Below are positions 13,501-56,886 of a DNA stretch of 64,000 nt, in pieces. Source of the DNA: Mesotaenium endlicherianum (lineage: Eukaryota); NCBI GenBank assembly GCA_009602735.1, contig WELA01003054.1:70408-134407 (forward strand), read 5' to 3'. Within the stretch, counting starts at the first letter, position 1. Every line of letters starts with the position of its first letter. A program made the position numbers and the translations under genes. A model generated the notes under the pieces. That model worked only from the letters and a program-made list of their open reading frames with translations. It was not told the origin of the DNA and made no database searches.

Positions 13501-14312
13501 CTCCTCTCGCCTCCCTCGCCTTCGCCCCTCTTGTATTACTTGAGTCCATGGGCCCCGGGCTCGTCCACTTGGACGCGCTCTCATTTGAAATGGCATTAAC
13601 GCTTGTTGAGGTGTGTGTGCTTTTGAGTATTTTGTGTCCTCAAGCGTGCTGCTCTCTGTGTCTGCCTACTTTCTGGAAGGAAGAGCCTCTGCAAGTGTAT
13701 GTGTGTTCCTGTATATGCATGGGTGTGTCTGGCTAGGTGTATGTACCGGTATCTGGCCTTTCTCCTCACATGTGTGCTTGCGTGCGCACGCGCGCACACA
13801 CACACACACATGCATTTGACACCCCCCCCCCACCCCCCCCTCCCCCTTCCCAACCCNATGCCCACCTTCCCGCCCCTGGTCATGTACTGACCCCGTCGTG
13901 TCGTTATCCCGAGGAGGCAGGTGCGGCTGCTGGAGATGGAGGGGGACCAGGCGCGCGCGTACAAGGAGGCCGTGGAGAAGTACCGCCGCACGGTGGAGGC
14001 CCGCTCGCAGGCGAAGGCCGACAAGGACGGCGACGCCGCCGGCAGCGGCGCCAACCTCGCGGACCTGCTGCCGCGCCGGCAAGTCGCCAACATCTTTGTG
14101 CACCTGAGAAAGGTGAGGGGAGCTCCGCCGCTGGAGGAGAGCAGCAGGGGAAGAGCCTGGTCTTGCAGCAAGCAGAAGGGCCTCTCCCTCTCTCCCTCTC
14201 CCTCTCTTCCTCTCTGCCGCCTGCTGTACCTGCTGTGCTTGGCTGGCTGGAAAGCGGGCGGTAGCCACTGGCATTGTCGGAGCACCACAGCAGGGGCACG
14301 AAGCTGATAGGC

Positions 14313-35102: not shown

Positions 35103-35846
35103 TGAAAGGGGCTGAGTGCCCTAGTGGAAGCGTAGTGACTCACGAGGAAAAGAACTAGCTGCAATCATACTAAAGAGTGCAGCGGCATATCACTAAGAAA
35201 GCTTAGGAAAATTACTCAACATTTTGAGTAGCAAGGAACTGCTCACAAATGATGTAGGATGAAAGGCCTTGTCATTACAAACCCGTAGAAATTTACAGAA
35301 GTGAAAACTGATAAGAAACAAAGAAGTTCTGCCTATTTATAATTTTCTGCCTAAGTGCTCCTCCTTAGGAGAAAGCTACGGATTTTCCTAAGTGTTCGTC
35401 AAATCGTCCCTTCCAAAATAATCGTGAGTGAGCCAAATCAGTCTAATCTGACGTGTCGGGCCAAATTGACGTCCACATACATGCATCGACATTACTAATA
35501 TATTCTATCTTAGACGCGCTAGGCTAAACCCAAACTTCTAGGTAAATCGACCTAGTCGGCACTCCGCGTCAACCAAGTTTACGTGAAGGTTCGAGTTCAT
35601 TCTAACGGGCCAGATCGCTCGACACTGTCGGTCAATCCGACGGTCGCGCTCACCGCGAATTAAGCACAGTCGTCAACCGACCTCAAAACTAATTAAACTT
35701 CAGGAATCCGTAACTCTCTCAATACTTGACCAAATTCGATGAACTTTATATCAAAATGACCACAAAAATGCACTCTACACTACTATACAATCAAAACATA
35801 CTTTTATGAAACTCAAAAATGCACTTTATAAACCTATGACCTTACA
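35103..35846 (-). repeat. 3' LTR (744 bp) of chromovirus
   Basis: TG...CA ends. Immediately preceded on the minus strand by the polypurine tract GAGGAGGGGGATGA (35847-35860). Confidence 0.95.
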
Positions 35847-38800
35847 TCATCCCCCTCCTCAAGATGCGACGTTCTCGACGCATTTTGCAGATAACGTCTC
35901 AACTTACTCTTATAATGAGTCAAGTTGGCCTCTGGCTCCCAAGTGTTGTCGTCCGCATGGTAGCCTTTCCACTTGACCAGATACTCTTGGACAAATTGTT
36001 GACCTCGCTTGACTCGTCGATCGCCGACAATCGCCTCCACTTCATACTCCAATACATCATCGATCTCGACCGGTGGTGGCGGTGTAGGTAGTCGTCCTGG
36101 ATGTCCTTCATTCGGGTCAACGTATGGCCGCAAACAACTGACATGGAACACATCATGGATACGCCAGCCTGAAGGAAGTTCCAACTTGTAGGCCACTGAA
36201 TTCACCTGCTTGAGCACTACAAAGGGACCTGTAAACCGTGCCCGTAGTTTCCTCTTGCCTGTGAAAGGTAGGTTCTCTGTGGACAAGAGTACTTTGTCGC
36301 CCACATGGAATGTCACTTCCCTCCTGTGCTTGTTAGCATGCTTGACCTGCTCTTCCTGTGCCTTCCGAATACACGTCTTCGCCATGTGCCAAGTGTTGGC
36401 CATCTGCTCCATAAAAGCTTGTGTAGTAGGAACCTGAGTCTCCTTGGCCTTCTCCAACAAGATGTTCCCTGGATGATATACTTCTCTCCCATAAACCATA
36501 GCGAATGGTGACTGCTTGGTCGATCCCTGCATGCTGTTGTTGTAGGCAAACTCCAATCCTGGCAGCTTCTTGTCCCACTCTGAAGGGTCCTCCATAGTGA
36601 AACTCCTGAGCACCTCTTGCAGAGTTCTGTTGAGCCTCTCACTCTGCCCATCTGTCTGAGGGTGATAGGAAGTGCTCATACTCAGCTTGGTCCCCATCAA
36701 AGTAAACAATGACCGCCAAAAGTTGCTAGTAAACCTTGGATCCCGATCTGAAACAATCACCTTCGGCAACCCATGTAGCCTGAAAATATGATCAAAGAAT
36801 AGCCGTGCCACATCTGCTGCCGTAGAAGTCTCCTTCATGGGAATGAAGTGAGCCATCTTGCTGAGTCTGTCAGACACTACCCATACTGCATCGTGCCCTT
36901 GACCACTGACTGGTAACGATGTGATGAAGTCCATAGCAATCTGCTCCCAAGGATACTCTGGAATAGGCAGGGGCCGCAATGTACCTCCCTTCTTTTGATT
37001 TGGTGTCTTGTTTCTCTGGCACGCATCGCAACTCCTGATCCACTCCTCGATGTCCTTGTCCATATTTCTCCAGTAGTATTCCCGCTTCAGCACGCTTGCC
37101 GTCTTCTCGCTTCCAAAGTGTCCAGCATATAAGCAGTCATGATGCTCCGCAAGTAGTAAGTCTCGTAGCTCCTTGATGTCAGGTACCACCACTCTCTTGG
37201 AATCACCATAATACCATATGCCGTCCTTCTTCTGCATACTCGCGTTGAACTCCGCTGCTCCACCATCAGCAAACTGTGGGTCCTCCTCATAACCTTTTTG
37301 AAGCTTCTCCTTGAAGTCCATATTCTCCTTGATGACTGAGACAGCTGCAAGGTCACACCTCCTGGATAAAGCGTCTGCAGGGTTGATCTTCCCAGGTAAG
37401 TACTCAATCTTGTGGTCGAACTGTTGCAGAAACTCCATCCACCTTGCTTGTCTTGGTGTCAACGTTGGCTGCGTCATAAACTTCTCCAAGCTCTTGTGGT
37501 CGGTCTTGATGAACACCTTCCGACCGTCCACATAACATCGCCAAATCCTCAAAGCCTGGATAATAGCCAACATCTCTCGCTCGTGTGCTGCATAGTTCTG
37601 CTCTGCAGGACTCAACTTCCTGCTCTCATATGCCACAGGCTGCAATCCTTTGCCCTGGTCCTGGAGAAGAATGGCTCCCACTGCAAAGTTTGACGCGTCT
37701 GTGATGATGGTGAAAGGAAGCTCTGGACTGGCAATTGCCAACACAGGTGCCTGTGTTAACAGCTCTTTAATCTTCTCGAAGGCTTGCTGCTCCTTGTCAC
37801 CCCATAGCCACTTCTCCTGCTTCTTCAACATGTCCGTGAGCGGTGCACACACCTTGGCAAATCCTTCAATGAAACGTCGGTAATAATTCGCCATGCCGAG
37901 GAAACTCCTGAGTTGATGAATATCAGCAGGTACCGGCCAATCTCTGACTGCTTGCACCTTCTTCTGCTCCACCTTGACTCCTTCAGCTCCCACTATGTGT
38001 CCAAGAAACTCGACCTCCTTGAGACAGAAGTCGCACTTGCTCATCTTCCCATACAGCTTTTGATCTCTCAAGACCTCCAACACCTTCCTCAGATGCTCCA
38101 CATGCTCTTCCAAGGTCTTCGAATAGATCAGGATGTCGTCCAAAAATACCACCACAAACTGGTCCAAGTAGGGTCTGAAGATACTATTCATGAGTCCCAT
38201 GAATGTAGCAGGTGCATTAGTCAATCCAAAAGGCATGACTGTGAACTCGAACAAACCATAGCGAGTTCTGAAAGCAGTCTTCTGAACGTCTCCTTCCGCA
38301 ATCCGTACCTGGTGATAGCCACTCCTCAAATCGATCTTCGAGAAATACTTCGCCCCGACAAGCCTGTCAATCAACTCGTCCACTCGTGGAAGTGGGTACC
38401 TGTTCTTGATGGTGACCTTGTTGAGTGCCCGGTAGTCGACACACATCCTCATAGTCCCATCCTTCTTCTTCACAAATAAGACTGGCGCTGCAAATGGAGA
38501 CTCGCTGGGTCGGATGAATCCCTTCTCCAATAACTCTGTCAGTTGCTTCTTTAACTCATCCAACTCCGCAAACGATTGTCGATAGGCGGGTCTCACTGGT
38601 GGCTTGCTCCCTGGTTCCAACTCAATCTTGTGCTCCATAGCTCTCTGTGGAGGTAATCCTGCAGGTAGCTCCTCAGGAAATACGCACTTGAACTCCTCCA
38701 ACAGCGCCTTAATTTGGGCAGGCATCTCAGCAGGCTTCTTCTCTTGAGCAGTTGGGCTCTGCTCCTTCTGAGCAAGGGGATCAGACACCACTACTTGCTC

Positions 38801-39517
38801 CTCCGGCGATGTACATTCGCCCAGGCTGTTAGGATTCACGCTTGCTCCATCTGATGACCTGGCCAGGGCCACCGAAACAAGGTACATCTCCTTCACCTAA
38901 TTCGCCCTGCATAGCTTTTTAACTTGCAGGCTCGACAGAAGACAGTTACTTGTGGTCGTATCTACCTCCACCTGTTTCGCTGTCTCCATTCGACCATCAC
39001 GCCCTTGGACTTTCACTTGTCCTGTGCTCCAGTGCACTTGAGGGTTGGCTTTCCTTAGCCATGGTCGGCCCAATATCACCTCATGGTGACCCAACTCTGC
39101 CTGCTCCATAACTTCCTTACTCCGGTGCCCCGCTACTTCCACGTGAATAGCTTCCGTAGGTGCACCACACTTGAGTCTCTGCCCATTTGCCAAAATTGCC
39201 TCCTTAGGCTCATAATGCTTCTGCACAGGGACTCGCCACTCTTTCACCAGCTTCTTGTGCACAAAGTTTGCACTTGCGCCACTGTCGACCATACACTTCG
39301 CATTGTTGCCGTCGACCACTCCTTCCACGATGATAGGCTTGTCAACGTCTCGTCCTTTGCTTCTCGGCAGGCTCCTGGGGATAACCTCCTTGTGAGTTCT
39401 CGTCTTCACGCCAGTAGACACCCCAGAACGACTTACTGGCGTCCTCCTTTTTCCTGCTGTTGAGGTTGCTTCGCCTTCACATGACAGTCTCGAGCCAGAT
39501 GTCCAAGCTTGCCGCAA
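35834..39517 (-). pseudogene. pol: Chromovirus pol (protease-RT-RNase H-integrase-chromodomain) with a single premature TAG at 38897-38899
   Basis: Protease VDSGA. RT motifs [38 protein letters not shown]. RNase [20 protein letters not shown]. Integrase HHCC and MDF..SDRD..ERLN. Chromodomain [22 protein letters not shown]. The paralogous copy has CAG at the TAG position. Confidence 0.93.
39408..39454 (-). promoter_or_regulatory. Putative -1 ribosomal frameshift signal (G GAA AAA plus stem-loop) at the gag/pol overlap
   Basis: pol is in the -1 frame relative to gag. GGAAAAA at 39454-39448 is followed after 5 nt by a perfect 9-bp stem ACGCCAGTA/TACTGGCGT. Both stem arms and the heptamer are conserved in the second copy (about 42555-42601). 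Confidence 0.7.
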
Positions 39518-40464
39518 CTATAGCACGGTCCTCTCGGCTTGAAATTCTGCTGCCTGCGCTGGTACTGCACAAGTCCCAACTCCATGGGTACTGGACCTTG
39601 AACACTCGTGCTTGGCGCTTGAGATCCAAAGTGTCGATATCCTCCAAAGTTGTGGCTGCCCCACTGCCTCTGACTATACTCCACAGCGTCGACCCTTGTT
39701 GCCAATGCCATCATTTCTCCAAGACTGGTAGGGTCCTTGAGCGCCACTTCCTTGGCCACAGTTGGCTTGAGTCCCCTCTTGAACTTGTCCATCATCTCCG
39801 ACTCGTGCATGGATGGACATTGAAGCACCAGCTCGTTGAAGCGCGATACATACTCCTGAACGCTTCCTCGTTGACGAAGGCGCACCAATAGATCTCGAGC
39901 GGTAGCCTCGGGTGCAATAGGTTGAAATTGCCTCTTCAAGCCTTCAAATAGCTGATCAACAGTAGCAGGAACTCCAGACAGCTGCTCTTCTCGTTCATAC
40001 CAAGCTCCAGCACTCTTCTGCAGCAAAGTTATGACAAAGGCGACTTGCCTGTCGGGCGTGAGCGCAGAATACTCCATAAACTTCTTCACTCCAAAAATCC
40101 ATTGATGAACAGGCGGCGATCCACGCTCTCCAGTATAAACTTCAGGCTTAGGTGCACGCACTCCTGATGCGGGTGGAATAACTGGTTGCACCACTTGGTT
40201 AACATGAATCGGTGGCACAACAGGTGCAGGTGCCGAACTCGTCGAAGCGGCGTTCTCCATAACAACTCGCACCATTCTCTCCACCTCCGCGCACATATTT
40301 TGTTGAAACTGGGTGTAGACTTCTCCTCCAATTGCATTTGCCATTTGTCTTAGCATCGCCTGCATCTCTTGTTGCTCTCTGGTCATTGTTGGTGCTGCCT
40401 GCTGCCCCGCGCGCTCAACATGCTCGACATGTTCGCCTCCTCCAGCTGCCGGCTGCGACTCCAT
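39433..40464 (-). CDS. gag: Chromovirus Gag (capsid plus CCHC zinc knuckle)
   Basis: Motifs PKPEVYTG, AGAWY, LRQRGSVQEYVSRF, FKRGLK, GPVPMELG and CYSCGKLGHLARDC. Confidence 0.93.
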   Translation of the reverse strand: MESQPAAGGGEHVEHVERAGQQAAPTMTREQQEMQAMLRQMANAIGGEVYTQFQQNMCAEVERMVRVVMENAASTSSAPAPVVPPIHVNQVVQPVIPPASGVRAPKPEVYTGERGSPPVHQWIFGVKKFMEYSALTPDRQVAFVITLLQKSAGAWYEREEQLSGVPATVDQLFEGLKRQFQPIAPEATARDLLVRLRQRGSVQEYVSRFNELVLQCPSMHESEMMDKFKRGLKPTVAKEVALKDPTSLGEMMALATRVDAVEYSQRQWGSHNFGGYRHFGSQAPSTSVQGPVPMELGLVQYQRRQQNFKPRGPCYSCGKLGHLARDCHVKAKQPQQQEKGGRQ

Positions 40465-40487
40465 AATATAATATGCAAACTAGCCCT

Positions 40488-40499
40488 GCTCCGATACCA
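40488..40499 (-). promoter_or_regulatory. Primer-binding site (initiator tRNA-Met type)
   Basis: TGGTATCGGAGC lies 2 nt after the LTR terminal CA and has one mismatch to the canonical TGGTATCAGAGC. Confidence 0.85.
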
Positions 40500-40501
40500 G
40501 A

Positions 40502-41245
40502 TGAAAGGGGCAAAGTGCCCTAGTGGAAGCGTAGTGACTCACGAGGAAAGGAACTAGTTGCCATCATACTAGAGAGTGCAGCGGCATATCACTAACAAAG
40601 CTTAGGAAAATTACTCAACATTTTGAGTAGCAAGAAACTGCTCACAAATGATGTAGGATGAAAGGCCTTGTCATTACAAACCCGTAGAAATTTACAGAAG
40701 TGAAAACTGATAAGAAACAAAGAAGTTATGCCTATTTATAATTTTCTGCCTAAGTGCTCCTCCCTAGGAGGAAGCTACGGATTTTCCTAAGTGTTCGTCA
40801 AATCGTCCCTTCCAGAATATTCGTGAGTAAGCCAGATCAGTCTAATCTGACGTGTCGGGCCGAATTGACGTCCACATACATGCATCGACATTACTAGAAT
40901 ATTCTATCTTAGACGCGCTAGGCTAAACCGAAACTTCTAGGTAAATCGACCTAGTCGGCACTCCGCGTCAGCCGAACTTACGTGAAGGTTCGAGTTCATT
41001 CTAACGGGCCAGATCGCTCGACGCTGTCGGTCAATCCGACGGTCACGCTCACCGCGAATTAAGCACAGTCGTCAACCGACCTCAAAACTAATTAAACTTC
41101 AGAAATCCGTAACTCTCTCAATACTTGACCAAATTCGATGAACTTTACATCAAAATGACCCCAAAAATGCACTCTACACTACTAAACATCCAAAACATAC
41201 TTTTATGAAACTCAAAAATGCACTTTATAAGCCTATGACCTTACA
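40502..41245 (-). repeat. Internal LTR (744 bp): 5' LTR of the nested chromovirus copy
   Basis: Near-identical to 35103-35846. It directly abuts a broken RT sequence at 41246 with no polypurine tract. Confidence 0.95.
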
Positions 41246-43646
41246 CACATGCTCTTCCAAGGTCTTCGAATAGATCAGGATGTCGTCCAAAAATACCACC
41301 ACAAACTGGTCCAAGTAGGGTCTGAAGATACTATTTATGAGTCCCATAAATGTAGCAGGTGCATTAGTCAATCCAAAAGGCATGACTGTGAACTCGAACA
41401 AACCATAGCGAGTTCTGAAAGCAGTCTTCTGAACGTCTCCTTCCGCAATCCGTACCTGGTGATAGCCACTCCTCAAATTGATCTTCGAGAAGTACTTCGC
41501 ACTGACAAGCCTGTCAATTAACTCGTCCACTCGTGGAAGTGGGTACCTGTTCTTGATGGTGACCTTGTTAAGTGCCCGATAGTCGACACACATCCTCATA
41601 GTCCCTTTTTTTTCTTCTTCACGAATAAAACTGGCGCTGCAAATGGAGACTCGCTTGGTCGGATGAATCCCTTCTCCAATAACTCTGTCAGCTGCTTCTT
41701 CAACTCATTCAACTCCGCAAATGATTGTTGATAGGCGGGTCTCACTGGTGGCTTGCTCCCTGGTTCCAACTCGATCTTGTGCTCCATAGCTCTCTGTGGA
41801 GGTAATCTTGCAAGTAGCTCCTCAAGAAAAACGCACTTGAACTCCTCCAACAACGCCTTAATTTGGGCAGGTATCTCAGCAGACTTCTTTTCTTGAGCAG
41901 TTGGGCTCTGCTCCTTCTGAGCAAGGGGATCAGACACCACTACTTGCTCCTCCGGCAATGTACATTTGCCCAGGCTGTTAGGATTCACGCTTGCTCCATT
42001 TAATGACCTGGCCAGGGCCACCGAAACAAGGTACATCTTCTTCACCTGATTCGCCTTGCATAGCTTCTTGACTTGCAGGCTTGACAAAAGACAGTTACTT
42101 GTGGTTGTATCTACCTCCACCTGTTTCGCTGTCTCCATTCGACCATCACACCCTTGGACCTTCACTTTTCCTGTGCTCCAGTACATTTGAGAATTGGCTT
42201 TTCTTAGCCATGGTCGGCCCAATATCACCTCATGGTGACCCAACTCTGCCTGCTCCATAACTTCCTTACTCCGGTGCCTCGCTACTTCCACGTGAATAGC
42301 GTCCGTAGGTGCACCACACTTGAGTCTCTGCCCATTCGCCAAATTGCCTCCCTAGGCTCATAATGCTTCTGCACAGGGAGTCGCCACTCTTTCACCAGCT
42401 TCTTGTGCATAAATTTGCACTTACGCCACTGTCGACCATAAACCTTGCCTTGTTGCCGTCAACCACTCCTTCCACGATGATAGGCTTGTCAACATCTTGT
42501 CTTTCGCTTCTTGGCAGGCTCCTGGGATTAACCTCCTTCTGAATTCTCGTCTTCACGCCAGTAGACACTCCAGAACGACTTACTGGCGTCCTCCTTTTTC
42601 CTGCTGTTGAGGTTGCTTCGCCTTCACATGACAGTCTCAAGCCAGATGTCCAAGCTTGCCACAATTATAGCAGGGTCCTCTCGGCTTAAAATTCTGCTTC
42701 CTGCGCTGATTCTGAACAAGTCCCAACTCCATAGGTACTGGACCTTGTTCACTCGTGCTTGGCGCTTGAGAACCATAGTGTTGCTGTCCTCCAAAGTTGT
42801 GGTTGCCCCACTGCCTCATACTATACTCCACAGGGTCGACCCTTGTTGCCAATGCCATCATTTCTCCAAGACTGGTAGGGTCCTTGAGCGCCACTTCCTT
42901 GGCCACAGTTGGCTTGAGTCCCCTCTTGAACTTGTCCATCATCTCCGACTCCTGCATGGATGGACATTGAAGCACCAGCTCGTTGAAGCGCGAAACATAC
43001 TCCTGAACGCTTCCTCGTTGACAAAGGGGCACCAATAGATCTCGAGCGGTAGCCTCGGGTGCAATAGGTTGAAATTGCCCCTTCAAGCCTTCAAATAGCT
43101 GATCAACAGTAGCAGGAACTCCAGACAGCTGCTCTTCTCGTTCATACCAAGCTCCAGCACTCTTCTGCAGCAAAGTTATGACAAAGGCGACTTGCCTGTC
43201 GTGCGTGAGCGCAGAATACTCCATAAACTTCTTCACTCCAAAAATCCATTGATGAACAGGTGGCGATCCACGCTCTCCAGTATACACTTCAGGCTTAGGC
43301 GCACGCACTCCCGATGCGGGTGGAATAACTGGTTGCACCACTGGGTTAACATGAATTAGTGGTACAACAGGTGCAGGTGCCGAACTCGTCGAAGCGGCAT
43401 TCCCAACAACAACTCGCACTATCCTCTCCACCTCCGCGCGCATATTTTGTTGAAACTGGGTGTAAACTTCTCCTCCAATTGCATTTGCCATTTGCCTAGC
43501 ATTGCTTGCATCTCTTGTTGCTCTCTCGTCTTGTTGGTGCTGCCTGCTGTCCCGCGCGCTCAACATGCTCGACATGTTCGCCTCCTCCAACTGCCGGCTG
43601 CGACTCCATAATATAATATGCAAACTAGCCCAACTCCGATACCGGA
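41246..43646 (-). pseudogene. Degenerate gag-protease-partial RT of the host chromovirus copy
   Basis: Highly similar to 38099-40501, with frameshifts, a CGA>TGA stop at 42637-42639 and a mutated PBS. RT stops at ..KTLEEHV where the LTR begins. Confidence 0.9.
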
Positions 43647-44167
43647 TGAAAGGGGCTGAGTGCCCTAGTGGAAGCGTAGTGACTCACGAGGAAAAGAACT
43701 AGTTGCAATCATACTAAAGAGTGCAGCGGCATATCACTAAGAAAGCTTAGGAAAAATACTCAACATTTTGAGTAGCAAGGAATTGCTCACAAATGATGTA
43801 GGATGAAAGGCCTTGTCATTACAAACCCGTAGACATTTATAGAAGTGAAAATTCATAAGAAACAAAGAAGTTATGCCTGTTTATAAGTTTCTGCCGAAAT
43901 TACATGAAGATTCGAATTCACTCTAACGGGTCAGATCGCTTGACGCTGTTGGTCAATCCGACGGTCGCGCTCACCGCAAATTAAGGACAGTCGTCAACCA
44001 ACCTCAAAACTAATTAAACTCCGGAAATCCGTAAGTCTCTCAATACTTGACCCAATTCGATGAACTTTATTTCAAAATGACCACAAAATGCACTCCTACA
44101 CTACTATACAATCAAAACATACTTTCATGAAACTCAAAAATGCACTTTATAAACCTATGACCTTACA
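43647..44167 (-). repeat. Outer 5' LTR (521 bp, about 223-bp internal deletion)
   Basis: Same termini as the other LTRs. The deletion junction is near 43895, and the GCACG TSD follows. Confidence 0.92.
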
Positions 44168-44389
44168 GCACGTGTGTCGGTGTCAGACTGGGGGTTGACC
44201 CATTCCTGGTCTTCCTGCACTTGTGTCATGCGGTAGAGTATCCCACACTCAGTGCTTCCCATGCTCAACCGGTTCCTCATTTCACACTACCTACACATTA
44301 TAGAAATTCTCAAAAAAATAACTTGTCCTCAATTTCCCTTACACTCCTCCCTTTTAGCTGAGACGTCCCTGCCTTTCCGCTGAAAGCTT

Positions 44390-44833
44390 CTATCTCCTAG
44401 CTCTGCGGCTGGAAGTTTTAGAAAGGCAGTCAGGACATTCCCACCGTCCTGCCATAGTCTCTTCTTAACCAATGCAGAAGGTGTGCCAATGGGCACTACA
44501 CTTATCGCAAGTTACCATTGCTTCTTAATCATCCAGCACTTTGCAGCTGGCACAAGGCGTGGCTGGCACCAATTCCTCGGGCACAGCCTTAACCATAGGA
44601 TCGATATTGGGCAAATGGCCCAGCGAGCAGTTCTGCACGTGATCTCTCATGGGCTTACTATCAGAATCTTCCAGATCCAACACACCATTGTCAAACGCAT
44701 GTTTCATGCGTAAAATCACTGCACCTGAACTGGTGTCGATGGTGGTCTTGGTCTGGCGCTTGCGGTAGACGAGTCTTCTTCCTGGATCTGCGTCATTTGC
44801 AGGCGGTAGCTCCCATCTCGCGTCCTGGCGCAA
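44390..44833 (-). pseudogene. Integrase C-terminal region with PHD finger (two in-frame TAA stops)
   Basis: Manual translation gives CASCKVLDD*EAMVTCDKCSAHWHTFCIG*EETMAGRWECPDC, a C4-H-C3 pattern with WxCxxC. Confidence 0.8.
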
Positions 44834-45693
44834 CGCTGCGTGTCTCTTTTCTGTGCAATTTTTAGATTGTCCAGGGCAGCAGGCATCATGCGCTCAAATA
44901 ACGCCTTGCGGCGTACCATAACCTTCAGCAGCTCATCAGGGTTGTCCAGGTCTTTCACCAGCTCAATCTTTTGCTTGATGCTGCTGGGCACAACAGGACT
45001 TCTGCCATACAGAATCTGATAAGGCGAGTAATTTGCTAAAGCAGCTTGCTTGCTAAATCTGTAACCCATAACCAGCCATGGCAGGGCCAGATCCCAATCA
45101 CGCTTATCATGCTCAAGGCAAAATTTGCGCAAAGCAGACTTAATGGTTTGCACCATCCGTTCTGCTAGACCATCCGCTTGTGGGTGGTTTCTAGACGTAG
45201 TGCAATGGTCAATGAAGCATCTGTCCAAGAGTTTCTGAAAAAATCCTTGGAACTCAGACCCTTGGTCTGTCAGCACTTCTGCTGGAGCTCCATGACGTAC
45301 AATCACACCGTTGAGGAGCGCTTCCGCGGTCTCCAAGCTCTCCTTAGCAATTAGAGGCACAACCTCTATCCACTTAGAGAAATGCCCAATCATGACCCTA
45401 ATGTACTCGTTACCTCGCTTGGACAGCGGTAGCTCTCCTGCGAGATTGCAGATCCACCGGTAGCCTAGGCCCATGATTGGCAGAGGTTGCAGGTGTGGAT
45501 GTTGCTGTGTAAAACCAGCCTTGACGAGATCACAACTTTGGCAGGCCTTGATCACATCCTCATACTGCTGCTTCATGCCCCTCCACCAGTAAGACAGCTC
45601 CAGAAGACTGTACGTCTTCTTAATATCATAGGGTCCAGTATTCTCGTGCATTTCCTGCACCAGAGTTTGCCTTTTGGTGGGTTCTGGCACCAA
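44716..45693 (-). pseudogene. Gypsy integrase (zinc-binding plus rve core)
   Basis: Motifs YWWRGM..CQSC, HFSKWIEVVPL, VLTDQGSEF, HPQADGLAERMVQTIK and SPYQILYGR. The first catalytic Asp appears as Asn (ICNLAG). Confidence 0.88.
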
Positions 45694-45888
45694 CTTCTCC
45701 TGACCAGTTTCTTCAATCGTAAAGAGGTTATTGCGTTTCCAGCAAAACCTTTTAGCTCAATGGCTTACTTGGTCCTTCTCTTGTACAGATAATCCCTCCA
45801 TGTGGACTCCCGTCTTCAGCCAGTGCATAGTGGCTTGATCTTTCCAGATCTCTGGACTGAACAGCGGTAGAGGCTTAGCTTCACCTGA

Positions 45889-46632
45889 TGAAAAGGGCAA
45901 AGTGCCCTAGTGGAAGCGTAGTAACTCACGAGGAAAGGAACTAGTTGCAATCATACTAGAGTGTGTAGCGGCATATTGCTAAGAAAGCTTAGGAAAATTA
46001 CTTGACATTTTGAGTGGCAAGAAACTCCTCACAAATGTACTTGGATAAAAGGTCTTGTCATTACAAACCCGTAGAAATTTACAGAAGTGAAAACTGATAA
46101 GAAACAAAGAAGTTATGCCTATTTATAATTTTCTGCCTAAGTGCTCCTCCCTAGGAGGAAGCTACCAAATTTCCTTAGTATTTGTCAAATCGTCCCTTCC
46201 AGATTATTCGTGAGTGAGCCAGATCATTCTAATGTGACGTGTCGGGCCGAATTGACGTCCACATACATGCATCGACATTACTAGAATATTCTATCTTAGA
46301 CGCGCTAGGCTAAACCGAAACTTCTAGGTAAATCGACCTAGTCGGCACTCCGCGTCAGCCGAACTTACGTGAAGGTTCGAGTTCATTCTAACGGGCCAGA
46401 TCGCTCGACGCTGTCGGTCAATCCGACGGTCGCGCTCACCGCGAATTAAGGACAGTCGTCAACCGACCTCAAAACTAATTAAACTCTGGAAATCCATAAC
46501 TCTCTCAATACTTGACCAAATTCGATGAACTTAATATCAAAATGATCACCAAAATGCATTCTACACTACTGTACAATCAAAACATACTTTCATGAAACTC
46601 AAAAATGCACTTTATAAACCTATGACCTTACA
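45889..46632 (-). mobile_element. Solo LTR (744 bp) of the chromovirus family, inserted between RNase H and integrase of the DNMT element
   Basis: Homologous to 40502-41245. 5-bp TSD CCTGA at 45884-45888 and 46633-46637. Confidence 0.95.
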
Positions 46633-48066
46633 CCTGACGCTACCATTCTAGCCATTTCGGCCAGACAAGCTGCCACCTCTGCTGGACTGCTCGGATCTTC
46701 GTCTTCTCGAGCTCCTGGTCTGTCGTCTGAGGATGGGTCCGGGTTCCTGCTGAGTCCATCGGCGTCGTTGTTGAGTACACCTGCTCGATGCACCACCGTC
46801 ATCTGGTAGTCCTGGAGCTTGAGAGTCCGACGAGCCAATTTACCAATGAGGTCTCCATTCTTCATCAGCCAGAGTAACGGCGAGTGATCTGTGATGAGCG
46901 TGAAGGGTCTTCCCCATGCATACTCTCTGAAATGTGCGACAGCCCAAACCACTGCCCGTAGCTCTCCTTCGTAGGACAAGTAGTTGCTTTCTGCTCGGTT
47001 GTTAGAGCGCGAGGCATAGGCAATGACGTACTCCTCTCTAGGACTTGCGGCCTGAATGAGTATTGCGCCGATTCCCACACAACTCCATCCAATGTGTAGA
47101 TTGAACAGCTTGGAGTAGTCAGACGTTTGCAAGACTGGGGCCGCTACCAGCCGCTCCTTGAGCTCGTTCATGGCCTTCTCCTGGACTTTTGTCCACACAA
47201 AAGGTACATCTTTTTTCAAGAGTTCTGTCCAGGATTTAGCAATTTTGCTTTAGTCCTTCACAAATTTACGATAGTTTCCTCTTAACCCTAACAGAGCTTT
47301 CAATTTATACACATTCGCAGGTGCAGGTATCCTGTAAATGGCCTAGCCTGAGGGGACATAGCATTGTTCCCAATCTCATGTCCTAAGTAAGGCACATGTG
47401 CCTTCAAAAATTTGCACTTTTTGAGATGCAGCGTCATCTGGAATTTCTCCAGGCGCTGGAACACTTGTTCCAAGTACTCGAGGTGCTCCTCTATGGACTT
47501 GCTAGACACCACTACGTTATCAATGTATAGTTTTGCGAAATCCAGCCCCTCCAGCACTTTATCCATAGTCCTCTGAAAGATGGCTGGGGCATTTTTCAGC
47601 CCAAACGGCATTACCGTCCATTGCCAAAGTTCCCTTTGAGCCCAGAAAGTGGTCTTACCTCGACCTTCTGTTTTCACAGGGATTTGGTTGAAGCCTTGGC
47701 GTAGATCGATGATGCTGAACACCTTCCCGGTGGTGGCAATCGCAAAGATCCGCTCTAGTGTAGGCATCACATAGCTGTCTGCTCCGTGTGGAGATTCAGT
47801 CGCCTGTAGTCTCCACACATACGAGTGGCTGTATAATTGCCAGCCTCGTGCTTCTTGGCAACTACTACTGTGGGAGCTCCATGTACTGAGGTTGATTTCT
47901 CAATCATGCCGAGCTTGTGGAGCTCCTGGCAAGTTTTCTCCACACAGTCCCATTCGGTCTGATTGAGCTTATGCGGCCCAAGTCTGACTAGGTTATCAGT
48001 AGTTAGTGTGATCTCACACACGCTGGCAGTGGTTCTACCAATCTCCTCCTCGGTGAAAGCAAACAC
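46633..48066 (-). pseudogene. Reverse transcriptase and RNase H of the DNMT-bearing gypsy element (frameshifted)
   Basis: RT motifs RMCGDYRRLN, IDLRQGFNQI, MPFGLKNAPAIFQR and LYIDN (YxDD decayed). RNase H motifs IAYASRS, EGELRAVVWAV, ITDHSPL and NDADGLSR. Confidence 0.88.
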
Positions 48067-50339
48067 CTTGTGGTGCTTCTTCAGCAGCCTTTCTACTTGT
48101 GCTCTCTGTTGGGCTCAAACCATTTTTCCAATGATGAAAACCTCAGTTTCTGGCTGCTTTTCCCGAACACAGGCATCCAGTAGTTGCTACTCTTTGGGTT
48201 CAGGTGGGGGCTTTCCGCCCTCATCCTGACCTTCAGGCTTTTTTGCCTGATTGTTAGGCGGTGGAGGGGCAGGCTTCACAGCTTGCTCCTCCGCTGACTT
48301 AGGCTCGGCGGCCTGCTTCTTATGCCTTTTACCTTTTCCGATGGATCGTCGCCTCTCCTGTTGAGTGGAGTATGTCAGACGCCTCCAAATGGGCTGCCTC
48401 AAGAACCTTTCTTCATCTGCTGCAGTCCAGCTGGTCCCCGTTCCTCCCTCTTCACGTGGTGGGGGCAGGGTCGGGAAAGGCCACCCTGCTGGATCTGCTC
48501 TGGGGTCGATTGCCCAACCCCACTCGCGCTCAATGGTAGCAATGCGCACAACGGTTGTGCCAAACTCTTCCCTTGCTGGTGGCGTAACCGTCCATGCTTG
48601 TGTCAAAGTCTGCGGTCTTTAAGCCGCAGCTAGTTGTGCGTATACATCATTCTCCGTTGTCAAGCGGCTTATGGTACTTCTCAGCTCTACCAATTCCCTT
48701 TCAAAACCGCAGGTGTCCTAGGCGCTGAACTATCCTTCTCCCACGTTCCAGTGGATGAGGGGCACGCCATGGGAATGTGAATTCCCAATGCCATGGCTTT
48801 GCAAATCAAGCCATCCTCTCCCTCTCTCTGCAAAATCTCCAGGATAGGTTGCGGAGGAGGAGCCATGGTTCCTTTTGGAACCCCTTCTCTCTGAGCTGCT
48901 CCCTTATACTTGAGATAACGCATCAGCATCCGCCTGAAAGGTGCATTCTCTTCCCTGGCCACCTTTCTTGGTCTGCGTTGCGCGACCGTGAGGATTACCT
49001 TGTGTTGGTTCCACCTTAGCGGTGCAGGCAGCCACTTCCTGCGGCTGTTGTAACTGACGTGGGGTAGCATCTGGTGCTAGAAAACTGGCGGTTGGAGTGC
49101 TGGATGTAGGTGACTTCAGATTGTTGTATAGATCTGCCGGTCTGGGCCCCTCCATTATCAAGTGGTCGGCCACCCAGTCATCCAACCTGAGCTCTTGTAG
49201 CTCCAACAGGTCCAGCTCTAGGGTAGGAAAACGTGAAATTTCTTCCTGAATCTCCTCTTCATTGGTGACTGAAAGCAAGTTGAACTTTGGAAGGTCTGGC
49301 ATCTCTGCCTCATCTTCAACTGACTTCTCCACTCCAGGTGGTGGTAGCTCTCCATCATTATCTGTGTTGAGCTTCGCCAGGTTGACGATGGCAGAGTGCT
49401 TGCCGCCTTAGCCACTTCCTCTTCCTTGTGCCGTTGAGCGTCTGCTTCTAGCAGCTGCTCCATGATCTGCCTTGCAATGAATTGTCTGACAGGCCAAACC
49501 CTGCTGTTGCCCCTTAGCCTGCGGCTCTGGGCTCATCAAAGAAGGTGTTGTGGACAATTGCTTGCCCGACTCCTCCTTGCGTTCTTCGTATATCACTTCG
49601 AGGCATATGGTCTTTGCAGACCCTCCAGAATCTCCTGAATTCTGGCTACTCTTTTCAGCCCATTCACCAATACTGCGTTGGCGTTCTTGCACTGATGCTT
49701 GGTTCAGATAGTATTCAAAGTCTTCAAGCGTTGGCTCAGGGGCCTTCTTCTCAGACTCCTCTGACATGTCTTGTAATGGCGCTTGCTCTGGTGAAGACGA
49801 TAGACACTTTTGGTTAGCCTCCCAGCTACTTGAGCTTTCCTGCCAATAGTCTCCGCACCCAACTGCTCTTGGGCTGAGGTTGGTATCATACTCTGATACG
49901 GCATCTTCTGAAGTCTTCTCACGCCTTGATGTCGCGGCTCCGGAAGGTGATGTCTCAAATATCTGACTGTGAGTGGCGTTTCCCACAGAAGACGTGGTGT
50001 CCTGCGTATCGTCTTCTGCACTTGGCAGCGGCGTTGTGTGCTCAAACATCTGGTCCCCTATGGGTGTATCCTCTTTTTCTAGAGGTGCTTGTAATTCAGC
50101 GATCCGATTATCGATCCGGTCCAACAGATCCTGGCATCTCATCAGTTCAGCTACCCCAACTTTCCTGAATGCTCTGTCTTTGGCAGCTTCCGCTGCGTCT
50201 CTTTGCATACCGTATTCTTCTTGTTGCTATTGTGCCGTCCTGATAGCCCTCTAATTAGATGTTGGCACCACATGGACCCCAATTGTCACTGGTCTTGGCC
50301 TCCGCATAGGCTTGTCGGTAAAGGTCAACTGCTGCCACG

Positions 50340-51305
50340 TCATGATTGTCTCCACCAGCCAAGTCATAGAGTGTTGTTCAATCATGTTGCCAAAAATCTT
50401 CGCAGCTTCATCTGAACCTACAGCATCGACTATCTGCCGAGCTATGGTGTCGAGTATTCCAAGGAAGTTTTCCTTCTCCATCGCAGTAGGCTCTCTCCAA
50501 ACGGCATCTCTTTCATGCATGTCTTTGACTATTCCTGGTCCACCTCCTATGAAGGCTCGGGATCTTGGATACCCTGTGAAGGTAGGCAGTACCACCCTTG
50601 GCTGACCTGGTTCGTTGATGACGCACTGTGGATAGGAATCCCTCTCGATCACTGGCTTGGTACGTACCGCCAGCGCCTCTTCCACTGTCAATGTCGTCGG
50701 TGATCGCCATGTAAGGTCCTCCATCTCTTTCAGGACCTCAATATACATGCCGTTGGTCCAAAATATTCTGGCCCTATGGAATAATCCTCCGTGCTTGGCG
50801 TCGTTGATTAGCACATGATGACCCAAGGTGGAGTCGAAAATCAGCCATGACTCTCCCGGCTTCAACTGCTTGTAATCCATTCCTGGATGCACGTTCTCAA
50901 TCACAAACACTGGTGGGTGATAGTGCTGACGTTCCCGCACCATGTTGATGATTTTCACCATCCATCGCCAGTGTTGTGCTCGTGGATCATTGAATCCCCT
51001 CCTGTTCCCAGCTTGGGAAAACGGTTGAGAAGGGAATCCAGCAAAGATCCAGTCAATCCTGTAGCCATACAGGTCTTCAAGCTTCACATTAATAATTTTG
51101 CCTCCAGCAATGCGCTCAACAGTGGCGTAGGCGGGGGCACCAACCCCTTAAAGTGATGCATTTGCTGCATCTGACTCATGACTTCTCTGAATGCTAGAAA
51201 AGCGTGGTTATCATTGTCCACATACAGGACTTTGGCCACCTGTATCTCTCGCTGGATCAATGCTATGGTCCCAGACCCAAGTCCGGCGAACAATTCCAAC
51301 ACCAT
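50340..51305 (-). pseudogene. DNMT3-like C5 cytosine DNA methyltransferase domain within the retrotransposon pol
   Basis: Motif I VLELFAGLGSG, motif II YVDND, motif III-like GGKIINV, motif IV AGFPSQPFS (PC appears as PS), motif VI FVIENV, motif VIII DAK..HRARIFWTN (compare DNMT3 DAK..HRARYFWGN), motif X IFGN. One frameshift lies near the C-run at about 51133-51137. Confidence 0.85.
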
Positions 51306-53534
51306 TACTCCCTTTCTACAAAAAGAATCTTCCATCCCGACAATGCCTTGCGACAGCGGCTCAACTCCAGGCATCAGGTTTGCAACAGAGGTAACTGGGT
51401 AGGGTATCGGCAGCAGCTCGTGCGGGCCGCGGTCCCTGTTACTCACAGTTTCCAATTGCTCCATAATCCGAGGTGGCCATACCAAGGGTGTTTGCATGTT
51501 GATGCTTGTATAGCTTTCCTCTTTGCGTTTCATGATGTTGTCGTAGGATTTTGGGTACCTGTCGTTAACGCAGCAGTCTAGCAGCCCGTAGTTTGCTTCT
51601 CCTGTGCAAACCATCTTCACAGGAATTTCTCCTGCCGGCTGCTGATCTGTTGATTGGTAAGTCACCCTCCGCTTCCGCAGATCAATGACCATACCCAAGA
51701 GAATCATTGCTTCTGTTCCCAAGAGAACATCATAGTTCTCTGCCTCCGTCACTGTGCACTCCATGAGTAGTGACGCCTCTTCAGGTTTTCCTGAATTTAC
51801 TCTGATTTCCACAAGCTTGCGGGTAATCCCACAAGACTTTGAGATTTGCCCTGAGGCAGTTCTCAACTGGAAAGGATTCTCTTTCAGGTCCTTTGCTTTC
51901 AATCCTAGAGTTTTCACAGCTCGCTTTCCCAGGATGACTGGTTGTGCGCCTGTATCCAACAGAATGTTGGGGGCTACCCAATTGTTGAATATTAGTGCAC
52001 CATCCCTCTTTTGCACTCTCATGGTGCTGAAATTGGTAGGCAATGAGGCGCCGTTCGCACCCTCCTCAGCTATATCCAGTTGATGTCCGGCTTCTACAAC
52101 CGTGAACGGGTAGGTGATATGCAAATCAGCGAGAAAAAGCAAAGGAGCATGCTGGATCCGGTGTTCCACCAGGGCCTTCAGCTTCTCTATCAAAAAACTC
52201 AATGTCTTACGCGTCCCAGGCCTGGCTTGTCGCAGCTGCGAGATCTCATTTTCATCCAGAGTGATCCGAAAAGTCTGAGGAAGCTTCCCAGCATTCCTTG
52301 GCACCAGACGGTCGTAATCTGCTCGCCTGGCAGCCGTTGCACCCACATCCTTTTTAGGCATCAGTTTCTCGCCTTTGCAGACGGTCTTTTCTGCAACATT
52401 TGCATCATAGTAAACATTAGGCGCATTTAGTTTTGCAAATTGAGCTTTCAACTCAGCGATTTCTGCACTCATAATGTCATACTTCTGGTTACCCTTGCGG
52501 TTACCAGAGCCACCTCTTTCTTTCTTTTTCTCCTTGTCTGCCTCTTTCGTGGCAGCATTTGCCCATGGCGGCTTTAGATTTGGATTCTTAGACCAGCACT
52601 GATCTTCTGAGTGTTCCTTCTTGCTGCAATGTGCGCATATCTGCGCCTTGCTAGCAGATAGTTGCTTAGCATCCGGGTACGGACAATCTCTCTTCTAATG
52701 TCCTGATTTCCCGCAATTCCAACAGCCCTCTGCTGTTTCAGCTGTGTTGGCGTGCTTAGCAAACTTATTGAAAGTCCCGCTCTCTTCTTAAATTGAAAAT
52801 TAGAGCTGTTGGCCTTAGGCGGAGAGGATTCTTCCCTCCTCTCAAGAGCCATAAGCGTCCTGAAAGCCTCCTTATACCACACTTTACCTTCTTCGACATT
52901 GCGTGCTATTTCAGCCGCCTCGTCAATGTCCCAGTAAATCCCGTGCTTCGCGGACAGGTGTGGCCTGACTTCACGATATGTTTCCTTGCACAAGCACAAC
53001 AGAAATTTGTCAGCCACTATTCTGGGCTCGTAAATTTTTGCCTTTTTGGCGAGGTCTACCAATCTAGATTTAACCTCAATGATTGTCTCGTTCTTCTGAC
53101 GGACAAAATGCACATAACGGTGCACCTTAGGACTGCGATCCTCTGGGAATCGTGCTTCAAGCAACTTAAAGAAACGACGCAGGCAATGCTCGGAGTCTAG
53201 CTGGTCATGCCCAGCCTCCATATCCTTACGACAGCTAGCTAAGGCTTCCGCCTGGCTTGCCTCTGTCGTGGCGCTATCGCCTTGCTGACCATTAAAAGGT
53301 GCAGCTCTGCGCGTTACTCGTTCCTGAGCATTAGCAATCTTTTCAGACAGTTCTGCACACACCTTTCGCAACTCTGCGACAGAGTCGGCATCATCATTCT
53401 GAGTAGCAGCCCATTGCTGGCCCTCAGTGAGTTGCCTCATGGCCTCTGTAAATTCTTGTGTTAGTGCAGCTAAGTCTATGCCCTCAACAAGTGCAGTTGG
53501 CACTGCTCTTCCTGAAGATAAAGCAGACATTCGG

Positions 53535-54739
53535 TGTAATGAATCAGTTCATTATTTATTTAATTAATTACATATATAAATATAACACTAAATAAGTATT
53601 ATGTGTACATACTCACATGTGCGAGTTCATCTAAATGAATGTATGACAATGTAATGCGAGCTTACTTACTTTGTCAGAATGGTCAGCAGGATGACTTTTA
53701 TATCATAGTGTAGTTTGCTGAGATTTATATATCAGTTATATATAGGATATAATATCAGTAGGTTGACATATAGTAAGCTCGCTTGATATTAGTCAATATA
53801 CTTAGCTTCAGTACGCTGAGGATAGACATATTCATTTAGATTGTTATTTGTAGATTGGCACATGTGACCGAAGTATACTGAAAGTCGGGAGGTCGACCGA
53901 GATTCGGTAAAGCGATGTCCTACCAGTGTGGTTAACTCCTGGGTAGGCGGAGCCGTCGTCAGTCAACTGAACAGTTAGGACTTCAGTCAACCGACCAATT
54001 AATATGGTCGTTATACCTAGATCCGTGGGTCCCAACTTAACGGGTTTCCCACGAAACGGCGCACCTTGCGCCGTGGTCAACCAGGTGGTCACTAGGTACA
54101 TAGCAGGCTGGGATCTTGTGGTCCCTCATTCTGGACAGTAGGCTTTACAGTCGGATTTCTACTTGCAAGTCATGTGTGCACTTTTGGGTTCGTTCTAATG
54201 ACCAGCCTTCACGGAATTGACATGGCTGCTTCGTCTGCGCTCCAAATGGGACAAACTAGGACTTTTCGGAGAGGTCTTGTCAAGATGCATCCGTTGTCGT
54301 TGAGTTTGCTCAATTTGAAGTGGTATTGGCAAAGTTATGCCCTCTGACATTTCGGGGTCACACAGCGGACATATTCCATGGTTTTGCACCTAAGTCAGTG
54401 GGATGTGTTTTAGCTACATTATTGTCATCTGAATGAGAGCGCCTTTGCTATTCAGTCCCCTGATGTTGTGCATGTGCTATACATGCTTGCATGCCTGGTA
54501 GGCAAGAGGCCATGAGTTTCTAAAGGAGAAGCTCAAGTACTCAAGCTCGCCTCTTACTTGTGCCTCGTGTTAGTGTGCAACTATGGCACACTACGGTAAA
54601 TGAGTCAAGGGTGTAGATGAGTAAATGGAATTCATTATAAGGGCGAAGATCGCTCCCCGATTTCACACGCTTCCACCTATCTCTGATCTTATATATTTAA
54701 ATGAAATATATTAATCTTGAATAAGCAAGATTCATTTCA
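53535..54739. mobile_element. 1205-bp TG...CA insertion (probable solo LTR of a third family) interrupting gag
   Basis: TSD TTCGG at 53530-53534 and 54740-54744. Ends TGTAATGAATC and GATTCATTTCA form a 10/11 inverted repeat. Removing it rejoins gag-like coding sequence (..QKEAANAR|MSALSS). Confidence 0.82.
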
Positions 54740-56813
54740 TTCGGGCATTCGCAGCCTCTTTCTGAATTTTCAAATCCCTACCCTTTTTTGCTCTCCAAAT
54801 GCCCATTCCTGGGTGAGATCCTCATCCTTTTGTAATTGGCGATATAGCAACAAGGCATCTTTATCCAAGTACTGGACCAAGCCTATAAATGCGACAAATT
54901 GCGTATAAGAAGAATCCTTCCGAATCTTCTCAAAGAATTTTGCCCAATAGATCTCGTCAAACTCTTCGAAAGTGAGACCGTTTCCACTGGTTTGTCCGCT
55001 AAAACACTTTGCAGACAGCTTGAACTTAGAATTTTCATCCCGATCATCACTAGCCATTTCGAACGGTGACCAGGACTCACTGACTCTACCCCACACGTCT
55101 TGCTCTCTGCCCAAATCAGATGCAAAGGCTCGTGTGTTATCCGAGTTCTTAACGCTTGCGGAGATAGGGCGAGACTTGTCTCTCGACGGTTGCTCACTCC
55201 ACAGGTTGTCAGTATGCTCAGACGTCTCACTTCCTCGTAGACTCTCGCTAGTGTCAGAACCTCTTCCACTCCTCAACCGCATATACAGTTGAATTTCTCC
55301 GGGTCCCCTTCCAGGTTGAACACCGGTAGCCTTCACAGGCCTCAATCCTCAACTGGCTTAGGAATTCTTGTTCACCTGAACCAATCAACCAAGTTCTCAG
55401 AAGTAGGACAGAAGCGTCTTACTTCTACACAGGCTTTTGCCCAAGTTGAGGATTTACAAAATGAACAAGTTTGTAATTTGCAAAAATCGCGTCTAAGCAG
55501 CTCAACAGGCAATGCCAGATTCAGAGAAAATCGCCCTTCAAGGCTTTCGCTTAACTTTCACGAAGTCACAGCTTACAAAATCCTGAAACTGCACATCTAT
55601 GCTGGCCTGGTCTGAGCTCTTCGCTCAACACCGCGCCTTAACAGCTTTTCACTGCTTGGCTGGGCTCACTCAGTTGTTTACTGAGAGCTTTACTTGTTAA
55701 TACTACTCTTGCTATCAGCAATTCGACAATTGAGACTTCTGAGAACTTGGAAACTAACACAGCACTCACCATTTTAAGTGACTTTCGCACGCTTGTGGTG
55801 TTTGTCTCGAATCTGTGTTAATCTCCTAACAAATTCTATTCTGCAGCTCTCTACTTTCTACCAGCGAGATCCCCTCTTGGAAACTCCTGAGGTCTAACCT
55901 TTCTATGGTACACTTGAGAAGAAATCTTCCAGCGCCGGCACAAGCGTGGCGTCTCGGCTCTTCTGTGGCCTTGGGAACTCCTTCTTCTTTGCGCTCCTTC
56001 TTCTCCTTTGACAACGATGCGAGCAAGAATGAGGCAGCTTCAGGCATGACTCGTGCCTTTCGCAGGCACCACACATTATCCTCTCTCGAGAATGCCAGTG
56101 CTTAGTCACAGCGCCTAGCTTACATGCCGTCCTTGCCTAGCAGCCCTCAAACAGCTTTAGAATTTGTCACTCAGCATGCATGCACGCCTTGTGACTGTCG
56201 CGCGTGACTGCTTAGCCTTTCAGCTGGCAATCGCACCTATGTGGCTAGCGGCTGGCAACGTTTGAGATGAACCCTCAAGCCGTGACTAGTCACTCGAGGG
56301 TCTTGGCCGAGGTGGCACACAACGCCTCTGCAACATCCCTGCTGTGCTTGGCTTAGATAGCCATTTGATCAGTACCTTACTTGGCACTTGTTGGGCTGGC
56401 TCATTGCCGGTTCCAGGCCCCTAGCCTTTCGGCTGACTACTCCGTTCAAATCCCCATCCATCCTTGGGTGTGGGCTTTGACGTGTCGTGACCACTTTGAC
56501 AGTGATAACGACTTTGACATAACCGCTGACTGAGATAACTCAACCCTTTGGTCGGTGAGTCAACGCTGACTTTCCGTACCTGGGCGGCCGTGACTTGCGC
56601 TGCGCGTGTGGTATCGTCAAGTGGATAGCAGTCGCGACACTAGTTCAAGTGTGAACTTTAATAATTCTGCACTTCAAATTGAAATTTAATTTATCAATTT
56701 TCATGGTAGAAGACCACATAACCAGGACTGACCAGGACTGACCAGGACAGGCCGACAACGGCTGAGGCCGCAAGAAGTAAAAGGTGAAGAAAAAAGTTGA
56801 GGGTCAAACTAGC

Positions 56814-56886
56814 TGCGCGAGACAGGGGTCGAACCTGCGACCTTTTGCTTAGGAAGCAAACACTCTATCCACTGAGTTACACGCGC
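56814..56886 (-). tRNA. tRNA-Arg(CCT): tRNA-Arg (anticodon CCT)
   Basis: GCGCGTGTAACTCAGTGGATAGAGTGTTTGCTTCCTAAGCAAAAGGTCGCAGGTTCGACCCCTGTCTCGCGCA. It has a D-arm, an anticodon stem TTTGC/GCAAA with loop TTCCTAA, a GTTCGA T-loop, and a downstream T6 Pol III terminator at 56795-56790. Confidence 0.92.

Follow-up and report, generated by a model that had tools for sequence, protein, structure and literature searches.

Why should a transposon carry the enzyme with which its host silences transposons? The question is raised by a 64,000-nucleotide stretch of Mesotaenium endlicherianum DNA (assembly GCA_009602735.1, contig WELA01003054.1, positions 70,408 to 134,407; here called the window, with position 1 its first letter), in which an earlier reading of the letters alone, the original prediction, had placed a DNMT3-like cytosine methyltransferase (DNMT) inside the pol region of a Ty3/gypsy retrotransposon. 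That the element is a Ty3/gypsy retrotransposon encoding, in this order, gag, protease, a DNMT3-like domain, reverse transcriptase (RT), RNase H, integrase and a PHD finger is as good as certain. The class of element is already published, and the one in the window is a decayed further member of it in one more host. The relatives of this copy point to a wider reading, which we advance tentatively and with slightly more doubt than conviction: a single Ty3/gypsy lineage would have captured a DNMT3 before the chlorophyte/streptophyte split, preserved it in catalytically intact form across hundreds of families, given it a PHD finger on the integrase as partner and, in chlorophytes, moved it once from the protease side to a place between RNase H and integrase.

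The element lies on the minus strand. Its aspartic protease (51708..51968; PF13975, gag-asp_proteas, E 7.8e-7), with LLDTGA at 51962, shares a frame with DNMT motif I within one open reading frame (ORF) at 51084-52694, and the N-terminal part of the methyltransferase, comprising motifs I-II (51153..51320; family hidden Markov model E 6e-9), has ELFAGLG at 51296. Beyond a frame break near 51150, the ORF at 50251-51147 supplies motif IV at 51045, the ENV of motif VI at 50898, motif VIII (DAKHGGLFHRARIFWTN) at 50802, a target-recognition region, motif IX at 50496 and motif X at 50397 (together 50335..51147; family model E 2e-50). The HMMER check against PF00145 that had been proposed for this region gave a match at E 3.9e-12 and 46.7 bits (cut-off 22). 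Motifs I-X are in non-permuted order upstream of RT, and every motif is where the original prediction had put it, including the run of the protease ORF in frame into motif I and the single frameshift that follows. The Ty3/gypsy identity also stands, since protease, RT, RNase H and a DDE integrase are present in the order typical of that group.

The claim that the domain is DNMT3-like stands for the family and not for the window piece taken by itself. Searched alone against the PDB, the 298-residue piece from the window finds the bacterial enzymes M.HaeIII and M.HhaI, not DNMT3, and short pieces give weak or chance matches only; the likeness to DNMT3 emerges solely from the family profile and the fold. 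The profile matches DNMT3A at E 4e-19, DRM-type enzymes at 2e-14, HhaI at 1e-10 and DNMT2 at 7e-6. The fold was modelled for the domain of an intact relative, P0003, and not for the broken window protein; the model has a pLDDT of 92, and its top Foldseek match is DNMT3A (E 7e-21, TM 0.72/0.83). As judged by profile and predicted fold, the DNMT of this family is closest to DNMT3A/B/C.

How widely the domain is shared was assessed with a search that used only the integrase and was blind to the DNMT, among proteins of 1178-3751 residues. It gave 28 matches, 25 of them close, and a profile built from the DNMT domains of the close relatives found the domain in 23 of these 25, whereas the three distant matches lack it. 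The two close relatives without it, P0004 and P0007, start 254 and 19 residues ahead of the RT match, so that what lies upstream is not seen. A PHD finger follows the integrase in 24 of the 25, and no chromo family occurs among their Pfam matches, the PHD finger standing at the integrase C-terminus instead. Among the 23 carriers, six have the DNMT between protease and RT, as in the window (type A), and 13 have it between RNase H and integrase (type B); four more are without RT and have the DNMT directly before the integrase. Precomputed Pfam annotation flags the DNMT in just six of the 23. A full HMMER search with the window DNMT (E <= 0.001) returned 390 clusters at 50% identity; the best 150 of these comprise 16 of type A, 70 of type B and 64 that show nothing but the DNMT, often as short pieces, and a Pfam scan of 22 of these 64 found no other family. 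Wherever a second domain is present among the best 150 of 390 (86 of 86 matches), the DNMT is embedded in Pol by RT or integrase. A word-based search with the DNMT piece found no relatives at near or longer lengths; it was the integrase-region and full HMMER searches that recovered them. The domain had been predicted to belong to the polyprotein between protease and RT, and the intact relatives P0003, P0005, P0010, P0011 and P0110 do hold it there within a single ORF, so it is no one-off capture; that position is not a fixed one, however, as most relatives have the domain between RNase H and integrase.

Most of the matches are metagenomic proteins, and 29 relatives were looked up by name. The named hosts of type A, namely Klebsormidium nitens, three Closterium strains and Mesostigma viride, are streptophytes, and those of type B, namely Scenedesmus sp. 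PABB004, Haematococcus lacustris and Pseudoscourfieldia marina, are chlorophytes, the P. marina sequence having neither RT nor RNase H and its DNMT just before the integrase. This suggests that type A is the streptophyte and type B the chlorophyte form, a match drawn from few species. The six full-length metagenomic loci analysed are all of type B. Terminal repeats were sought in six loci of relatives, one of which has a 169-bp end repeat and two of which have short internal repeats. Two type B proteins, P0016 and P0018, have a G-patch between DNMT and integrase, and a third, P0022, has a peptidase S26-like piece after the PHD finger.

The catalytic residues were counted across 177 aligned domains. 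The catalytic Cys is present in all 146 domains with a residue in that column, the Glu of motif VI (which reads ENV, ENT or ENA in the family) in 161 of 162, and the two Arg of motif VIII in 165 of 170 and 166 of 169. Mean identity among the relatives is 0.37-0.39 in the DNMT, against 0.42 in RT and 0.48 in the integrase, and the near-invariance of Cys, Glu and both Arg in domains that are otherwise about 38% identical argues for selection on catalysis. In the unbiased set, found through the integrase, 20 of 23 show motif IV with its Cys; P0001 and P0020 are without that region and P0006 has lost it. We think it probable that the intact domains of the family are active methyltransferases.

The same residue can be followed in other copies within the host, using contigs of public DNA runs aligned to stretches of the window, among them run X1, from which the assembly itself may derive. 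In that run, 214 contigs align to a 371-base stretch of the DNMT, and at the motif IV codon 27 contigs read Cys, with a depth of 18068 of 18141 (about 250:1); the residual depth of 73 is about that of one single-copy contig, presumably the window's own copy. These data suggest a rough figure of 100-250 related copies. A pseudo-enzyme throughout the family in this host is rejected, since these other copies read the catalytic Cys. Three RNA runs, in which the organism may not be present, gave 0 reads on a 371-base stretch. The DNMT frame break is crossed by three of the eight contigs listed, of 215 pieces in all, with lengths that fit a single frame, and contigs from other copies also cover the spacer that follows the DNMT. 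Summed depth in run X1 is 8-17 thousand over DNMT and spacer and 23-48 thousand over gag, RT and integrase, a measure that does not rank the parts and from which nothing is concluded.

The history of the lineage was approached through trees. A tree of RT and RNase H with 33 rows separates every carrier from the four rows of the outgroup (100/100) and unites the 16 of type B in a single clade (100/100), which arises at an open fork among type A rows. A DNMT tree of 22 rows splits A from B at 89/92. A larger DNMT tree of 105 rows, from which P0020, P0124, P0139 and P0189 are excluded as short, groups 82 of 84 type B rows (SH-aLRT 93), P0025 and P0171 falling elsewhere. The integrase gives a less tidy picture than RT: P0006 and P0007 are placed among type B, which is monophyletic in only 48% of bootstraps. 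Distances in the DNMT track those in integrase, RNase H and RT (rho 0.49, 0.37 and 0.50; none of 999 permutations as high), which shows the DNMT to be inherited together with RT and integrase. One capture of the DNMT and one relocation would be the simplest reading that these trees, with their small outgroup and rows that do not include host DNMT3, suggest; horizontal transfer among algae may also have occurred.

What might the domain do for the element? Pol proteins are packaged with the element RNA and are present at cDNA synthesis and integration. Since the DNMT is part of Pol in both architectures, it would be packaged likewise and be in the particle while cDNA is made and integrated. There, once released from Gag-Pol by the protease, it would methylate cDNA or the site of insertion, the probable target being CG if DNMT3A and the dinoflagellate SymbioDIRS-Dnmt3 are a guide. 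The PHD finger would choose the place: among the best 60 of 81 matches, its profile is nearest to fingers of KMT2C/D, CHD4, KDM5, DPF3, BAZ2, PHF21A, UHRF1 and plant ATXR5 and ORC1B. Most such fingers (KDM5, CHD4, BAZ2, PHF21A, ATXR5, ORC1B) read unmethylated H3K4, and by this kinship the element PHD is predicted to bind H3 tails unmethylated at K4, which would favour non-promoter chromatin and steer integration to H3K4-unmethylated sites. We regard it as reasonably likely that intact members of the family methylate cytosines on their own new DNA or at the insertion site while the PHD finger steers integration, and we lean, with modest confidence, towards the element's own cDNA or insertion site as the main target. 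The window copy itself is incapable of either protease release or methylation. If the single-capture reading is true, the element would bear both halves of the animal DNMT3 logic, in which a reader of unmethylated H3K4 picks a site and a de novo methyltransferase marks it, and Pfam's missing of most members would explain why the chlorophyte form is unreported.

Several observations weigh against the reading of intact members as self-directed enzymes. The window DNMT is only 29-35% identical to its relatives and neither DNMT tree fixes its place; in the 105-row tree it hangs by a long branch from an open fork and lies outside a 17-row type A group (SH-aLRT 89) that holds the K. nitens protein P0083. 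The residue count is biased, as 150 of the 174 input proteins came from a DNMT query, and in motif IV the pair EC is commoner than the canonical PC (E in 87 and P in 44 of 145). The intact 3330-residue ORF of P0006 carries, between protease and RT, a DNMT-derived domain (residues 1420-1760) without motifs IV, VI and VIII, likely a pseudo-enzyme as judged from its sequence, and its retention means that the domain can persist without catalysis. The CpG observed/expected ratio is 0.58 over the DNMT element and 0.55 over the pol of a DNMT-less neighbour, an equal depletion that leaves no extra footprint of self-methylation. Finally, the DNMT domain of the K. nitens element, the nearest relative to have been tested, produced no methylation in yeast, a result that its authors describe as inconclusive, DNMT3B having failed too (de Mendoza et al., 2018; PMC5890265).

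Some of these points would also suit other explanations. Conserved catalytic residues, together with a CpG depletion that does not exceed that of the DNMT-less neighbour, are what might be seen if the enzyme acted in trans, methylating host chromatin, competing elements or invading viral DNA, and an antiviral role has been speculated upon (PMC6338049). We think this improbable, however, as the unbroken association of the DNMT with RT or integrase in Pol would place it in the particle with the cDNA, and selection on a selfish element should favour effects in cis. The yeast result, the dead domain retained in P0006 and the replacement of PC by EC in most relatives would fit a domain whose main task is not catalysis but binding to DNA or nucleosomes, or acting as a decoy for host DNMTs. 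The near-invariant catalytic residues and the prevalence of Cys among the other host copies argue otherwise, and this explanation is similarly improbable. A substrate of RNA rather than DNA, be it the element transcript or a primer tRNA, is very improbable: the enzyme would indeed be packaged with RNA, its motif VI is that of most C5 enzymes and does not settle the substrate, and RNA methylation has been raised for the retrotransposon SymbioLINE-Dnmt (PMC5890265), but the family profile is far nearer to DNMT3 than to DNMT2 and the fold likewise. That the domain goes back to the one-time capture of part of a host or viral gene, or is an insertion nested in the element, and in either case does nothing for it, is scarcely credible even though the window copy is broken and its own top PDB matches are bacterial. 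The same position recurs in intact single-ORF relatives and in K. nitens, the host holds many copies, and DNMT is found in nearly all close integrase relatives and in hundreds of clusters. Matches to viral contigs are weak and for the most part partial, the best reaching E 3e-11 where retroelement loci reach 1e-63, and the 80 loci compared include no close homologue from a virus.

Methylation in cis by intact members is our preferred reading; the copy in the window is dead. It has at least 10 in-frame stops and five frame breaks, which the original prediction missed together with the loss of the catalytic Cys, the PHD finger and a solo long terminal repeat (LTR) of 744 bp. The element begins with a gag-like ORF of 318 residues from an ATG at 53530 (52574..53530), which has no gag Pfam match, has a frame break near 52790 and is taken as gag from its position before zinc knuckles and protease. 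Two CCHC zinc knuckles follow (52572..52745; PF00098 E 2.6e-5, with tblastn matches to P0003 and P0110), the first of them broken by a stop. In the DNMT, motif IV reads FPSQ, with Ser in place of the catalytic Cys. The frame break near 51150 was considered as a programmed frameshift and rejected, as a slippery heptamer is absent and the crossing contigs of other copies keep one frame. Two stops come directly after the DNMT, and RT starts only at 48153, about 2.1 kb beyond; the low-complexity spacer between them (48154..50277, a gap in the tblastn alignment) has stops, no Pfam match of note and about 700 codons, compared with about 45 residues at the matching gap in P0003. The RT (47348..48153; PF00078, RVT_1, E 1.3e-27) has one internal frame break and YIDN rather than YIDD. 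RNase H (46641..47342; PF17919 E 2.7e-28, PF17917 E 1.6e-27) and the integrase with its H2C2 and DDE core (44773..45852; PF17921 E 2.1e-12, PF00665 E 1.7e-7; 50% to P0001) each have their first acidic residue, an Asp, altered. At the integrase C-terminus, the C4HC3 PHD finger (44426..44554; PF00628 E 5.4e-6, 26.8 bits against a cut-off of 24) has two stops. The window is nonetheless covered collinearly by intact P0003, from zinc knuckle to PHD finger, in tblastn.

The ends of the element are less clear than its interior. A purine tract (44344-44355) followed by TG at 44343 marks the candidate start of a 3' terminal repeat (44168..44355), which is truncated by a nest of chromovirus-like elements. 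No LTR pair of the element's own and no 5' copy matching the candidate repeat were found in the window, nor was there a clear primer-binding site in this copy. The nest (35103..44167, minus strand, about 9 kb) is of a younger, DNMT-less, chromovirus-like Ty3/gypsy family and entered the 3' end as a single block, with a target duplication GCACG. It consists of LTR, internal part, LTR, partial internal part and a shortened LTR; the LTRs of its first unit are 95.7% alike, and the open 1020-residue pol of that unit ends in what we take to be a chromodomain-like tail. The same neighbouring family left the solo LTR (45889..46632; 92-94% to the LTRs at 35103 and 40502), which separates RNase H from integrase and is accompanied by a 5-bp target duplication, CCTGA; contigs of other copies span the site and omit 749 bases.

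Upstream of gag, the stretch 53650-54700 is covered by contigs to a summed depth about fivefold that over the element interior and may be a 5' repeat of this element or some other repeat; it has no match elsewhere in the window. A 192-codon ORF at 54770-55348 (minus strand), with no Pfam match, resembles the gag start of another retroelement, cut off upstream of the DNMT element. A tRNA-Arg(CCT) lies at 56814-56886 (minus strand; ARAGORN, Rfam). Host genes are placed at 59043-59816 (+), 27416-28234 (-), 63118-63465 (-) and 7407-13599 (+); Pfam identifies an S40 senescence regulator and a pectinesterase among them, both of which point to a streptophyte, and other pieces presumably resemble an ADP-glucose pyrophosphorylase and an SNF2-type remodeller, for which no match was obtained.

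The original prediction had stated that DNMT-carrying retrotransposons are known, and the available text of de Mendoza et al. (2018; PMC5890265) bears this out. KnitGypsy-Dnmt3 of K. nitens is described there as a streptophyte Gypsy element whose Pol holds a DNMT3-related domain, intronless and non-permuted. The window is collinear with the K. nitens protein GAQ93235.1 (P0083), which from species and architecture we infer to be one of the elements of that paper, along protease, linker and DNMT alike (E 6e-18 from the protease to motif II; E 2e-24, 29% over 257 residues, for motifs IV-X). By its sequence the window element belongs with KnitGypsy-Dnmt3, from which it differs in being 25-29% identical, a dead copy, and in its long spacer before RT. 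A PHD finger goes unmentioned in the text and readable supplements of the paper, one of whose figures may show one, and a DIRS-like repeat layout is reported for the K. nitens element; the window has no such repeat pair. From Symbiodinium, SymbioDIRS-Dnmt3 and SymbioLINE-Dnmt likewise carry a DNMT inside a retrotransposon ORF, the former also with two alternative domain orders and with domains that methylate CG de novo in yeast; SymbioDIRS has a tyrosine recombinase and SymbioLINE an endonuclease (PMC5890265), whereas the window element has a DDE integrase (rve and H2C2) with a PHD finger.

Other systems share parts of this design. The EpiLTRs of Cymbomonas and Euglena, one of these hosts being a chlorophyte, are LTR elements with a DNMT and a chromatin reader; they combine DAM and a chromodomain with a DNMT that is sister to DNMT4, and in the portion of the preprint available are set apart from Gypsy-DNMT3 (10.64898/2026.05.21.726589). 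No DAM or chromo match was found in the window element or its 25 close relatives, and DNMT3 is the best match of the family profile. Chlamydomonas REM1 and Gypsy-7a_cRei are green algal Gypsy elements with a PHD finger in Gag-Pol (PMC9940879; PMC6673714). The latter, of 15.4 kb and active in laboratory strains, has no DNMT named in its figure legend (PMC9940879), and is likened here by description, not by sequence comparison. Gypsy-DNMT3 elements are still placed in streptophytes in the accessible parts of recent accounts (Sarre et al., 2025; PMC12344493; 10.64898/2026.05.21.726589), and green algae are listed among the hosts of DAM- and DCM-encoding elements in a passage that does not separate the two types (PMC6338049). 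We found no report of the chlorophyte form with RNase H, DNMT and integrase, of a DNMT3-PHD pairing, or of a DNMT3-Gypsy element in Closterium or Sphagnum, although subscription papers, theses, Repbase or supplements may hold one.

Set against this background, the present element and its relatives show how broad the clade is, and they add a second architecture in chlorophytes and a constant PHD partner. As most relatives show the second architecture and the three hosts named for it are chlorophytes, DNMT3-carrying Gypsy would be an old and diverse green-algal lineage, whose many naturally intact enzymes, some of them in culturable algae, bear on the question of why a transposon should carry its host's silencing enzyme. 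There are practical consequences too, in that counts of DNMT3 in algal genomes can be inflated by such elements and that precomputed Pfam annotation, having overlooked the domain in most carriers, calls for caution. Animal DNMT3A/B are the best match of the family domain by profile and modelled fold, at about 23% identity. The family domain has neither PWWP nor ADD, and its predicted chromatin reader is a separate PHD finger on the integrase.

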